From a virus: a stretch of DNA of 64,000 bases. Below the pieces are notes generated by a model. The model saw only the letters and a program-made list of their open reading frames with translations, did not search any database and had not been told where the DNA came from. Position numbers and translations under genes: made by a program. Positions 1 to 23,511 of this stretch are shown in pieces. The stretch's first letter is position 1. Each line of letters opens with the position of its first letter. The stretch lies in the IMG/VR virus record IMGVR_UViG_3300005066_000001. One strand, written 5' to 3'.

Positions 1-394
1 GTCGCCGTCTTTGTGATTTACTTCTGGTAAATTGTCAGGGTTAGGTATAAACGCACAAGCAATTACCCTGTGCAATCTTACCTTTTTATAAACCCCTTCA
101 GTATTTTTCATTGTTACAAAACAATACCCTGCTTTATCTATATAGACTTTTAATCTTTTCCAGTTAGGGTTGATAACATAACCTTCTTCATAAATTTTAT
201 AATTAGGATATTCATTTAGTTGTGTAAACATATATCTCCTTAGTTGCTTCGCTGCTGATTACCCATTGTACATCTTGACAATTTTCAAACTTTCACACCT
301 AATGTTACCATTTATGTTGTAGTTTGTCAAGCTTTAGGGCTTTCCAGCAATTCACCTAATTTTCGATATACATTACTGTATAAAGGAACTATTT

Positions 395-17144: not shown

Positions 17145-17219
17145 TGGCACAGGTACAGCGATTTGAACGCTGACAATCTTTTTAGAAGAAAGATATGCTA
17201 TCCATTACATCATACCTGC
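17145..17219 (-). tRNA. tRNA-Arg (anticodon TCT)
   Basis: Manual cloverleaf, 75 nt: acceptor GCAGGTA/TACCTGT (G1-U wobble); D-loop with GG; anticodon arm TCTTT-CTTCTAA-AAAGA; T-arm CAGCG-TTCAAAT-CGCTG; discriminator G and an encoded CCA. Confidence 0.65.
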
Positions 17220-17228
17220 AAGTTAATT

Positions 17229-17303
17229 TGGTGGGCCTAGATGGAATCCAACCATCCTTGAACCAGTTATGAGCTGGCTGCATTCGCAGACTGCCATAGG
17301 CCC
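17229..17303 (-). tRNA. tRNA-Met-like (anticodon CAT), atypical D- and T-loops
   Basis: Manual fold, 75 nt: acceptor GGGCCTA/TAGGCCC plus A plus CCA; anticodon arm GCCAG-CTCATAA-CTGGT; T-arm GATGG-TTGGATT-CCATC. T-loop has G at the usual C56 position and the D-loop lacks GG. Could be an initiator/elongator Met or an Ile(lysidine) tRNA. Confidence 0.5.
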
Positions 17304-17325
17304 TGTAAATCTTTAAAATACTTAG

Positions 17326-17408
17326 TGTTGGATGTGAGACTCGAACTCACGATGAGGTTTCCCTGCTGGATTACAAAACCAGTCGTATCGCCACTAACGG
17401 AATCCAAC
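17326..17408 (-). tRNA. tRNA (83 nt, long variable arm; anticodon uncertain, UGU if the loop is canonical)
   Basis: Acceptor GTTGGAT/ATCCAAC; T-arm GTGAG-TTCGAGT-CTCAC; D-loop TAGTGGCGAT; variable hairpin AGG-GAAA-CCT; anticodon region CTGGT-TTTGTAA-TCCAG with a U-U mismatch at 31-39. No encoded CCA. Confidence 0.4.
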
Positions 17409-22128: not shown

Positions 22129-22385
22129 TTGTTTTCTCCTAAATATTTAAACAATGGGTCGTTCATACATGACTCTAACATGGTAGTTGCCTCATGTAAA
22201 GCGTCTTTAAACAGGAAAGATTTTCCTGATTTCATTACTAATTGCCCAGCATAGACAGTCCAAGTAACATCTTCAAGATAACTGTATCTGGTAACTTTTG
22301 CACCCCATCTTGTTTCTGTTGATAATGTTGCAAGTTTAGTAATTTTGCTACTCTTTTCAAATTTTGTTTTAATTTGAAGTTTCAC
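22125..22385 (-). CDS. hypothetical protein
   Basis: 86-aa ORF overlapping its neighbours by 4 nt. Confidence 0.35.
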   Translation of the reverse strand: MKLQIKTKFEKSSKITKLATLSTETRWGAKVTRYSYLEDVTWTVYAGQLVMKSGKSFLFKDALHEATTMLESCMNDPLFKYLGENK

Positions 22386-22609
22386 AGTTTATACTCCTTT
22401 GTTTCATATGTAAAAAGTTCTCGTGCAATACCGTATTGATAGAGGTTCTGGTAAACACTAAACGCAGCATCTGCTGCAAATTTGAACTCTCTACCACTAG
22501 CCATCAGGATATTGGAGAGGTTTTTGTAGTGCTTGATTGCCATTTTTAGTTCTCTGTCTGAGAATACAAATCCTTGCGAATAACATTCATAAATATCTTT
22601 AGTTTCCAT
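22382..22609 (-). CDS. hypothetical protein
   Basis: 75-aa ORF. Confidence 0.35.
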   Translation of the reverse strand: METKDIYECYSQGFVFSDRELKMAIKHYKNLSNILMASGREFKFAADAAFSVYQNLYQYGIARELFTYETKEYKL

Positions 22610-23166
22610 TACGTTTCTCCTCTATTAGTTGTGTAACTATCTAAGCTTGTTTAAACAGCTCCTATGGCACTTTAAATCAATTCTGTTAGCTTGTCAATAC
22701 CATCGTAGCACTAATGCTATAAAATTGCTTAGAAACGATTCTATGAGCCTTTGTGTATTGTAAGATAGATTGTCATGTGTGTCAAGAAAAATTTTAGATA
22801 AAAGAAAAGGGCCAACACCCGAAGATGTGGCCCAGTATGATTAAAGAGAGGAGATTATGAGAGAAAATAGAAATAGATTGTATATCATGTAGGTCTCACT
22901 CGTCGCTGCGTAAATATTGGCAACCACCGCAACGGAGTCCCTGTTGCCTGCGCTACATAATACATTGAGACATTAATGTCTCGGCATCTTTGATGCTACC
23001 TAATATAAAATCAAACCACATTGCGTGGACAAAGAGCAAGGAGAGGATAGGGTGGATGTACAACTAGAGAAGGAGGACTCATGATCATTGTACATCACTT
23101 GCGGCTCTGTGAGCCTAAACTTATTTTATAATCTATAAATAATATTAACATTTAAAATTAAACTTG

Positions 23167-23511
23167 TCAAGAATTATTTTTAGGATAAATAGTAATGCGA
23201 TGTACCAATCCCACTTTTTCTAAATCATTAATAGCATACTTGACAGCGATATCATTGAACGAATATTCCCAGAAACTCAAGGGAAGACCACTAACAGTTG
23301 TTGCTAATGTTTCAGAAAAAGTGGTTGCTTCATCTTCATTTGTGAAAACAGTATCCGTTTTTTCAATCAAAACACTGTTACATATCTTGGAGTATACGAC
23401 ATGAAGGTTTGTTGGGACAGCCTTGAAATATTCTACTTCTTCGTGAGATAAAAGAACAGCTTCCTTGCTGAGGTTTTCCTTACCAGACGGTTTGTTGTTT
23501 TGTTGTTCCAT
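23167..23511 (-). CDS. hypothetical protein
   Basis: 114-aa ORF downstream of a long non-coding leader. Confidence 0.35.
   Translation of the reverse strand: MEQQNNKPSGKENLSKEAVLLSHEEVEYFKAVPTNLHVVYSKICNSVLIEKTDTVFTNEDEATTFSETLATTVSGLPLSFWEYSFNDIAVKYAINDLEKVGLVHRITIYPKNNS

Follow-up and report, generated by a model that had tools for sequence, protein, structure and literature searches.

A predicted pseudoknotted RNA module within a minus-strand non-coding transcription unit of an Aeromonas phage

What does a phage encode in a part of its early region that carries no long open reading frame (ORF)? The question is raised by an intergenic island in a 64,000-nucleotide (nt) stretch of viral DNA (IMG/VR record IMGVR_UViG_3300005066_000001, hereafter the window), lying between the minus-strand ORFs 22382–22609 and 23167–23511, for which an initial annotation had proposed a structured or small regulatory RNA. 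The gap indeed holds no long ORF (the longest is ≤44 amino acids (aa), and ≤36 aa on the minus strand), and comparison with related phages supports the RNA proposal, strongly so for a 74-nt core in which both conservation and covariation were found, but places the RNA on the minus strand.

The window derives from an Aeromonas phage of the genus Plateaulakevirus, with 4L372D as its best match (90% identity across the intergenic region). The G+C fraction is 0.43–0.445 across 22800–23099 compared to ~0.30–0.35 on either side, a rise that is genuine but modest. The three perfect hairpins reported there are all present (GGCAAC...GTTGCC, GAGACATTAATGTCTC and GATGTACAA...TTGTACATC), the last with a loop of 24 nt instead of 27 nt. 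Folding of the minus strand gave z = −2.85, with 0/100 shuffles folding equally well, and folding of the plus strand gave z = −2.42 (1/100); the comparative data, namely conservation and covariation in related phages, appear to be the stronger evidence. A Pfam search of the flanking ORFs found no domain.

A covarying pseudoknot module and its distribution

The core of the island is predicted to be a compact, strongly covarying pseudoknot in an RNA family absent from Rfam. Its parts, all on the minus strand, are the following:

22886–22959, minus strand: 74-nt pseudoknotted RNA module, with module position 1 at 22959 and position 74 at 22886 (covariation, covariance model)
Module 1–7 with 68–74, minus strand: closing stem S1, 7 base pairs (bp) (covariation)
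Module 8–11, minus strand: junction CGCA, near-invariant and unpaired
Module 12–17 with 36–41, minus strand: stem S2, 6 bp, the GGCAAC/GTTGCC hairpin already reported (covariation)
Module 18–21, minus strand: AGGG, near-invariant and unpaired
Module 22–35 with 48–62, minus strand: long helix of 12–13 bp with bulges at G32 and A57–C58 (covariation)
Module 63–67, minus strand: GAGAC, near-invariant and unpaired

The long helix joins what would otherwise be the loop of S2 to the strand 3′ of S2, which makes the fold an H-type pseudoknot. A covariance model of the module scored 108 bits at 22886–22959, the sole copy within the window. In an alignment restricted to A-type sequences (11 sequences), 99% of cells were paired and 11 pairs had changed on both sides, a result as good being obtained in 0/500 shuffles. 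Addition of the B paralogues, aligned with the covariance model (17 sequences), gave 99.2% paired cells and 14 pairs changed on both sides, and a hand-fitted alignment of five types (20 distinct sequences) gave 99.0% paired cells with 17 of 26 pairs changed on both sides, compared to 75% pairing in shuffles and 22–46% with slid partners. The module alignment also distinguishes the two strands, as 99.0% of cells pair on the minus strand versus 91.0% on the plus strand, with 42 cells being G.U. For types C and D, the search pattern itself accounts in part for the near-invariance of CGCA, AGGG and GAGAC; types A, B and E came from BLAST, which imposes no such constraint. Two further contacts were considered and rejected: a local CCG-UUG-CGG hairpin in the S2 loop, which type B is unable to form and in place of which the long-range helix covaries, and a tertiary pair C10–G35, suggested by C-to-U and G-to-A changes in 4L372D, which is better read as a change of G35.U48 to A–U.

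We compared these sequences with the 4227 covariance models of Rfam 15, both at the gathering threshold and at a relaxed E ≤ 10. At the gathering threshold, the whole window returned just two tRNAs near 17.2–17.4 kb. At E ≤ 10, both strands of 22500–23400 gave chance matches and, at 19.7 bits (gathering threshold 41), a match to mmgR confined to the terminator, leaving no family for the island, and types B, C and D also matched no family. A literature search found no description of the module RNA, nor of transcriptomes for the carrier phages; the module may sit among the thousands of candidates that large phage surveys list without names (PMC10690425). We read the module core as a putative RNA family that was previously unannotated.

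Copies of the module occur in at least five Aeromonas phage lineages, the carriers being Plateaulakevirus, the T5-like Shenzhenvirus, APT65, ST4, phiA005/4_L372X and AsC4_1, and the host of every cultured carrier is Aeromonas. A 64-nt tract (22891–22954) is 82–98% identical in the otherwise unrelated Aeromonas phages AhSzw-1 and AhP_Mru1 (T5-like), ST4 and APT65, and in these four the copies lie in or beside a tRNA gene cluster, on the tRNA strand. Within Shenzhenvirus, AhP_Mru1 carries paralogues A and B, AhSzw-1 carries A and Akh-2 carries B, with copy B of Akh-2 and Mru1 filling the slot between tRNA-Lys(UUU) and tRNA-Glu. The APT65 module starts 4 nt past the CCA of the last tRNA of its cluster, and a start 4–5 nt past an encoded CCA is seen in AhSzw-1 A, APT65 and Akh-2/Mru1 B, but not in the window, ST4, type C, AsC4_1 or type D. 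Other copies precede tRNA genes on the same strand, by ~600 nt for the three tRNAs of ST4 and by ~160–325 nt for the clusters of phiA005, 4_L372X, the sequence L136 and metagenomic relatives. AU-rich single-stranded flanks lie on both sides of the module. Carried by at least five otherwise unrelated lineages and placed, as a rule, in or beside tRNA gene clusters, the module appears to have been shared horizontally.

Natural deletion variants also exist: 2L372D and 2L372X show a clean deletion of the module together with two small neighbouring hairpins (window equivalent ~22880–23010), with the promoter, CU-rich 5′ part and terminator of the surrounding unit, described below, being kept. Type D is represented in at least two metagenomic or viral contigs, and E. 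coli genomes contained the D-type flank only, without the module. A scan of GTDB species representatives with the pattern CGCAG-N5-8-GGGACNCCG-N20-45-GTGAGACC gave 59 matches, all attributable to chance in GC-rich genomes and none in Aeromonas; this pattern is specific to type A, so that the negative covers that type and host or prophage copies of types B–E may exist. A scan of viral contigs with the 3′ motif alone returned mostly chance matches.

Some observations on the surroundings of these copies are recorded here. In the window, three tRNA genes, for Arg(TCT), Met(CAT) and Thr(TGT), form a minus-strand cluster (17145–17408) at a distance of 5.5 kb from the island; the cluster shares the island's strand, and no module copy adjoins it. 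D-type copies (L194:440–565 and L116:5450–5560) cap a ~19-bp stem, CACAACAGGTAAGAGCATTG...CAGTGYTCTTTCCGTTGTG. With another tip, of 37 nt, this stem recurs just past the terminator tR′ in the late leader of lambda-like phages (HK630, L243:1204–1279); 219 enterobacterial phage records match the 5′ arm of the stem, which is covered by no Rfam family and has the look of a hairpin whose tip can be exchanged. An HNH endonuclease-like ORF (L194:658–1617, minus strand), with weak Pfam matches to HNH and colicin-DNase, ends ~115 nt upstream of a D-type module, and endonuclease genes also adjoin the Akh-2 tRNA cluster. In L117 and L136, a hairpin CCACGGAUUCUAAAUCUGUGG lies ~10–35 nt downstream of the C-type module; its 7-nt loop, UUCUAAA, resembles an anticodon loop with CUA (amber), and ARAGORN calls no tRNA there.

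A minus-strand transcription unit around the module

The module of the window is embedded in a longer non-coding unit with the following features:

23142–23170, minus strand: sigma-70-type promoter, TTGACA-17 nt-TAATAT with a TG extension (promoter scan, conservation)
22793–23135, minus strand: non-coding transcription unit of ~340 nt, from predicted start to the end of the terminator U-run (ends predicted from sequence)
23103–23115, minus strand: hairpin H1, GGCUC-ACA-GAGCC (sequence and relatives)
23055–23096, minus strand: hairpin H2, 9-bp stem GAUGUACAA/UUGUACAUC, loop motif AGUCCUCCUUCU at 23068–23079 (comparison of eight phages)
23005–23047, minus strand: CU-rich stretch UCCUCUCCUUGCUCUUU, then hairpin CCACGCAAUGUGG and UUUGAUUUUAU (terminator-like scan match)
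22967–23000, minus strand: two small hairpins, GGUAGCAUCAAAGAUGCC and GAGACAUUAAUGUCUC (sequence, fold, relatives)
22843–22854, minus strand: third CU-rich motif, UCUCCUCUCUUU (reverse complement of the strong Shine–Dalgarno (SD) sequence reported at 22843)
22800–22833, minus strand: intrinsic terminator, GGGCCACAUCUUCGGGUGUUGGCCC then UUUUCUUUU (terminator match to an Rfam small RNA (sRNA) model, minimum-free-energy fold)
Relatives only, co-oriented with the non-coding RNA (ncRNA): tRNA-Pro(TGG), L003:4207–4281, L113:1795–1869 and L114:2473–2547 (window equivalent ~23123–23129, where the gene is absent)

The promoter begins right behind the stop codon of the upstream gene and scored 10/12 in our scan, with the TG extension besides, and both hexamers and the TG are invariant in 8/8 aligned Plateaulakevirus phages; transcription would start near 23135. 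At the other end, the terminator aligns with the terminator portion of an unrelated Rfam sRNA model and is also formed in the minimum-free-energy fold, and relatives have a second version, AAAGCCAC...GUGGCUUU, that is different yet equally complementary. The ~340-nt unit is kept end to end in these eight relatives. In three of them (phiA009, 4L372XY and 2L372D), a tRNA-Pro gene in minus orientation lies between the promoter and hairpin H1, so that in some phages the unit is apparently a tRNA-plus-ncRNA operon.

A conserved sigma-70 promoter and a Rho-independent terminator around a non-coding stretch, the arrangement taken to mark an independent sRNA gene, are thus both present in the sequence. 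From the promoter and terminator in the eight-phage alignment, and from the orientation of tRNA-Pro in three of these phages, we interpret the island as a stand-alone minus-strand non-coding transcription unit bracketed by a conserved promoter and terminator, its two ends being predicted positions. G.U pairs on the minus strand also occur in stems H2 and H3 and in the terminator, and the promoter, the terminator, the wobble pairs and the co-orientation with tRNA genes all agree in indicating an RNA read from the minus strand.

The 5′ part of this unit looks like a base-pairing sRNA, in which hairpins and single-stranded stretches would display three CU-rich motifs resembling an anti-SD sequence. 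The stem of H1 is invariant, and covariation consequently gives it no evidence. The stem of H2, on the other hand, exists in three unrelated 9-bp versions, all complementary (GAUGUACAA/UUGUACAUC, GGUAUGCAC/GUGUGUACC and GAGUUUAUC/GAUAAACUC), the second with two G.U pairs on the minus strand, and these enclose a loop motif, AGUCCUCCUUCU, that is identical in 8/8 phages. Further downstream, the hairpin at 23028–23005 is a weak internal terminator-like match, in which relatives replace G.U by G–C and 2L372D carries AGUUAUGCAAUAUAACU instead; it could allow release of a ~125-nt 5′ sRNA. The two small hairpins that follow are kept in 7/8 relatives and were lost along with the module in 2L372D, and CTCTCCTC, of the third CU-rich motif, is invariant in 8/8 relatives. 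All three motifs (AGUCCUCCUUCU, UCCUCUCCUUGCUCUUU and UCUCCUCUCUUU) are the minus-strand form of the SD sequences in the initial annotation and almost an anti-SD sequence, the SDs of the phage being of the AAGGAG(G) type.

The margins of the unit vary between phages. A plus-strand ORF of 184–200 aa (L002:3255–3809, L003:3267–3869, L112:1734–2288 and L114:1719–2273) lies just outside the terminator in TS9, phiA009, phiA047 and 2L372D, the insertion point corresponding to window 22789–22795; the phiA009 version alone has a weak Trypsin_2 match, and most phages with this ORF have the alternative terminator, which is bidirectional in appearance. A plus-strand cassette of two genes (L001:3651–4855 and L113:265–1463), whose annotation notes similarity to hypothetical proteins of Vibrio phage ICP1, is found on the right of the island in 4L372D and on its left in 4L372XY; the window lacks this cassette, which seems to be mobile around the ncRNA locus. 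The scan also found a further strong minus-strand promoter at 22785–22757, ahead of the next gene, and in total three near-consensus TTGACA-17-nt promoters on the minus strand fall within 500 nt (window 22669–22785 and 23142–23170), which suggests an early region densely punctuated by promoters and transcribed by host RNA polymerase.

Possible functions and competing explanations

On balance, we think it more likely than not that the island is a stand-alone minus-strand ncRNA gene of a Plateaulakevirus-type phage, from whose transcript a stable, trans-acting module is excised and whose CU-rich motifs pair with SD sequences. Host tRNA-processing nucleases would cut the module from tRNA-type or ncRNA polycistronic transcripts, with RNase E acting on the AU-rich flanks and RNase P on neighbouring tRNAs, and the freed RNA, tRNA-sized at ~75–85 nt, would be stable and shielded by its closing stem. 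Acting in trans, it would then use its conserved junction pocket to recognise a host factor, or a ligand, that matters in Aeromonas infection, and the CU-rich motifs of the surrounding RNA would pair with SD regions and damp translation. A stable tRNA-sized RNA acting in trans is, we infer, the most likely function of the module.

Several points weigh against this proposal. Start and 3′ end of the transcript, like its excision and stability, are predictions, and the five-type alignment (A6) was hand-fitted to the structure, an acknowledged bias. The 4-nt AGGG linker must span a helix of 12–13 bp, which makes the exact three-dimensional arrangement uncertain; the helices may kink at the bulges, or S2 and the long helix may alternate rather than coexist. 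The module is missing from 2L372D and 2L372X and hence dispensable under laboratory conditions. The window module has no adjacent tRNA, the nearest being those at 17145–17408, and the sequence stretch examined around AsC4_1 and the D-type members contains none. Complementarity of the CU motifs to SD sequences is generic: a search for their mRNA targets within the window gave just generic SD-like matches and none that was specific, and matches to the 12-nt complement of motif 1 are no commoner in the window than expected by chance.

A bolder possibility, which we hold tentatively and consider the less probable, is that the module is a new class of functional RNA put in tRNA operons for high expression, as a self-cleaving ribozyme or as a decoy or sponge for a host defence component. 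Decoy targets could include a tRNA-targeting nuclease or an immune signalling nucleotide. If true, a decoy would be the RNA counterpart of protein anti-defence sponges and would explain the horizontal spread among unrelated Aeromonas phages.

The main rival to the trans-acting ncRNA gene is that the module is a new class of small self-cleaving ribozyme, trimming tRNA 3′ trailers or splitting polycistronic non-coding transcripts, which we judge unlikely. Its size of 74 nt, pseudoknot, multi-helix junction, invariant junction nucleotides and covarying helices are features used to shortlist ribozyme candidates, as set out in one such survey (PMC10085705), although ten motifs shortlisted there on the same criteria failed to cleave. 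Several copies lie 4–5 nt past a tRNA CCA, and theta ribozymes cleave within ±5 nt of the tRNA 3′ end (PMC10879173); the module is moreover found in phages and is horizontally mobile in appearance. Nevertheless, only 1–2 of the ~30 tRNAs per T5-like phage carry a module and many copies lie away from tRNA 3′ ends, no known ribozyme family matches at E ≤ 10, the core motifs of hammerhead, twister, pistol and hatchet are absent, and the topology is not that of the hepatitis delta virus (HDV) ribozyme, with neither P3/L3 nor P4 and with an extra closing stem that would keep both cleavage products joined.

We also regard as unlikely a purely cis-acting role in processing or stability, in which the module would be a roadblock or nuclease guide setting the 3′ end of the preceding RNA, or a protector of the transcript, with no role in trans. 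This explanation fits the copies that directly follow a tRNA or lie close to the 3′ end of a transcript (the terminator comes ~50 nt after the module in the window and ~25 nt after it in L182), and also the AU-rich, RNase E-like sequence on both flanks, but a simple hairpin would suffice for such a role, and the invariant unpaired nucleotides and pseudoknot kept across five diverged types imply that a specific three-dimensional shape is recognised. The position relative to tRNAs also varies, with copies after them, between them or hundreds of nucleotides upstream.

A role at the level of DNA, as a target of recombination or of a homing endonuclease or as a single-stranded DNA hairpin of a mobile element, is very improbable. 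It would explain near-identical copies in unrelated phages, such as the 64-nt tract that is 95–98% identical between T5-like phages and the window phage amid dissimilar flanks, and homing endonuclease genes are common nearby (the HNH-like ORF 115 nt from the L194 copy, and the gene near the Akh-2 tRNA cluster). For a duplex site recognised by a protein, however, one would not expect compensatory changes that keep three helices, including the pseudoknot, across five types, nor a strand-specific wobble bias, nor consistent co-orientation with tRNA genes.

It is harder still to credit a plus-strand element, whether a structured leader with strong SDs and translated mini-ORFs or a riboswitch-like or intron-derived RNA, as the initial annotation had suggested. 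SD-like boxes with ATG codons are certainly present on the plus strand, and some relatives have plus-strand genes inserted beside the island. Both mini-ORFs can be found: the 11-codon one (MRENRNRLYIM*, 22857–22892) retains its length in some relatives but is truncated in PAc, where 3 codons are left, and lacks its ATG in TS9, and the 16-codon one, from 23081, is unconserved, its stem being replaced in relatives with no ATG left there. Our scan found no promoter upstream of the island on this strand, G.U pairs turn into A.C mismatches such that pairing falls from 99% to 91%, and the module is co-oriented with tRNAs everywhere. A leader or riboswitch also sits badly with what follows the module, which is a terminator in the window and L182, a tRNA in Akh-2 and Mru1, and unrelated ORFs in APT65 and AsC4_1; Rfam gave neither a riboswitch nor an intron match, and the flanking ORFs are intact and separate, which speaks against the remnant of a self-splicing intron. 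Because the RNA is apparently read from the minus strand, we interpret the SD boxes and mini-ORFs as plus-strand shadows of its CU-rich motifs, and "strong SD plus mini-ORF" signals in AT-rich phage intergenic DNA can more generally mirror the CU-rich motifs of an sRNA on the opposite strand.

Finally, a degenerate or non-canonical tRNA, or tRNA pseudogene, in a tRNA slot is scarcely tenable: the module resembles a tRNA only in its length and 7-bp terminal stem and occupies the gap between two tRNAs in Akh-2 and Mru1, but neither ARAGORN nor the Rfam tRNA model (RF00005) finds anything at the module copies, even at E ≤ 10, the D, anticodon and T arms are all missing, no CCA follows the closing stem although neighbouring phage tRNAs encode one, and compensatory evolution of a different fold would not be expected of a pseudogene.

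Relation to known RNAs

The 5′ part of the island RNA recalls Staphylococcus RsaE and the UCCC motifs of RNAIII, base-pairing sRNAs whose C/U-rich seeds occlude SD sequences. The likeness lies in CU-rich motifs (AGUCCUCCUUCU and others) in a loop and in single strands before terminator-like hairpins; the island RNA differs in being phage-encoded in a gamma-proteobacterial host, and in that its motif is almost the anti-SD itself, which makes its specificity unclear.

H-type pseudoknots that serve as aptamers or bind proteins include the SAM-II and preQ1-II riboswitches and the T4 gene 32 leader pseudoknot. Like these, the module is compact, with conserved loop or junction nucleotides and a possible binding pocket, but it has an extra 7-bp closing stem, a much longer second helix (12–13 bp, bulged), no Rfam match, and no consistent downstream gene or expression platform. 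Type III antitoxins are tandem pseudoknot repeats of the ToxI kind beside the gene of an endoribonuclease toxin; in the window there is a single module copy between ORFs without Pfam domains, and copies elsewhere are single or separated paralogues rather than tandem repeats. Resemblances to the sarcin–ricin loop, 5S rRNA, RNase P RNA, integron attC sites and CRISPR repeats were judged by visual comparison alone and rejected, the matching letters falling in positions that vary between members of the module family.

Among ribozymes, the theta class is minimal, HDV-like and found beside phage tRNAs, with its cleavage site within ±5 nt of the tRNA 3′ end (PMC10879173). Theta ribozymes and the module are both small pseudoknotted RNAs in Caudoviricetes, and some module copies likewise lie a few nucleotides from a phage tRNA 3′ end and on the same strand. 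Theta ribozymes, however, have the nested double-pseudoknot HDV fold (P1, P1.1, P2 and P3/L3) with a catalytic C in J4/2, cut at their own 5′ end and occur mainly in gut phages of Bacteroidota and Bacillota, whereas the module combines a closing stem with a single H-type pseudoknot, lacks P3/L3 and gives no match to the HDV family in Rfam, and its cultured carriers infect Aeromonas. We tried an HDV-like mapping in two registers and rejected it, as P2a and P1b have no P3/L3 between them and the 5′ end is paired. Hatchet, described as four helices joined by bulges without a pseudoknot (PMC4604424), is unlike the pseudoknotted module. For hammerhead, twister and twister-sister as well as for pistol and hatchet there was no Rfam match at E ≤ 10, and the CUGANGA...GAAA core was not found.

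Phage tRNA clusters are increasingly viewed as devices for counter-defence and for the takeover of translation. To our knowledge, the non-tRNA RNAs within them, such as species 1 and 2 of T4, have gone unexplained for decades. Here, a defined fold, natural paralogues, natural deletion variants (2L372D and 2L372X) and cultured phage–host pairs, several of them aquaculture phages, would make the role of such RNAs directly testable, and a module that proved catalytic, or that sequestered a ligand or protein, would define a new RNA class.

By context, the closest analogue of the module appears to be the small stable RNAs rnaC/rnaD of T4 (species 1 and 2), which are not homologous to it: with filters off, our module covariance model (R1) reached at best 13.2 bits on T4 69000–75000, in a partial hairpin, giving no homology to rnaC or rnaD. 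The T4 RNAs are 119–139 nt long with tRNA-like 3′ parts, in contrast to the 74-nt, pseudoknotted module without a T-arm, and are presumably freed by the tRNA-processing machinery. They are alike in being non-coding phage RNAs with no assigned function, encoded in a tRNA operon, on its strand and immediately 3′ of the last tRNA; in the T4 region examined, rnaD begins 1 nt past tRNA-Arg. The same placement, directly past a tRNA in its operon and on the same strand, is found for the Shenzhenvirus and APT65 modules, and the module of the window lies in a separate ncRNA unit.

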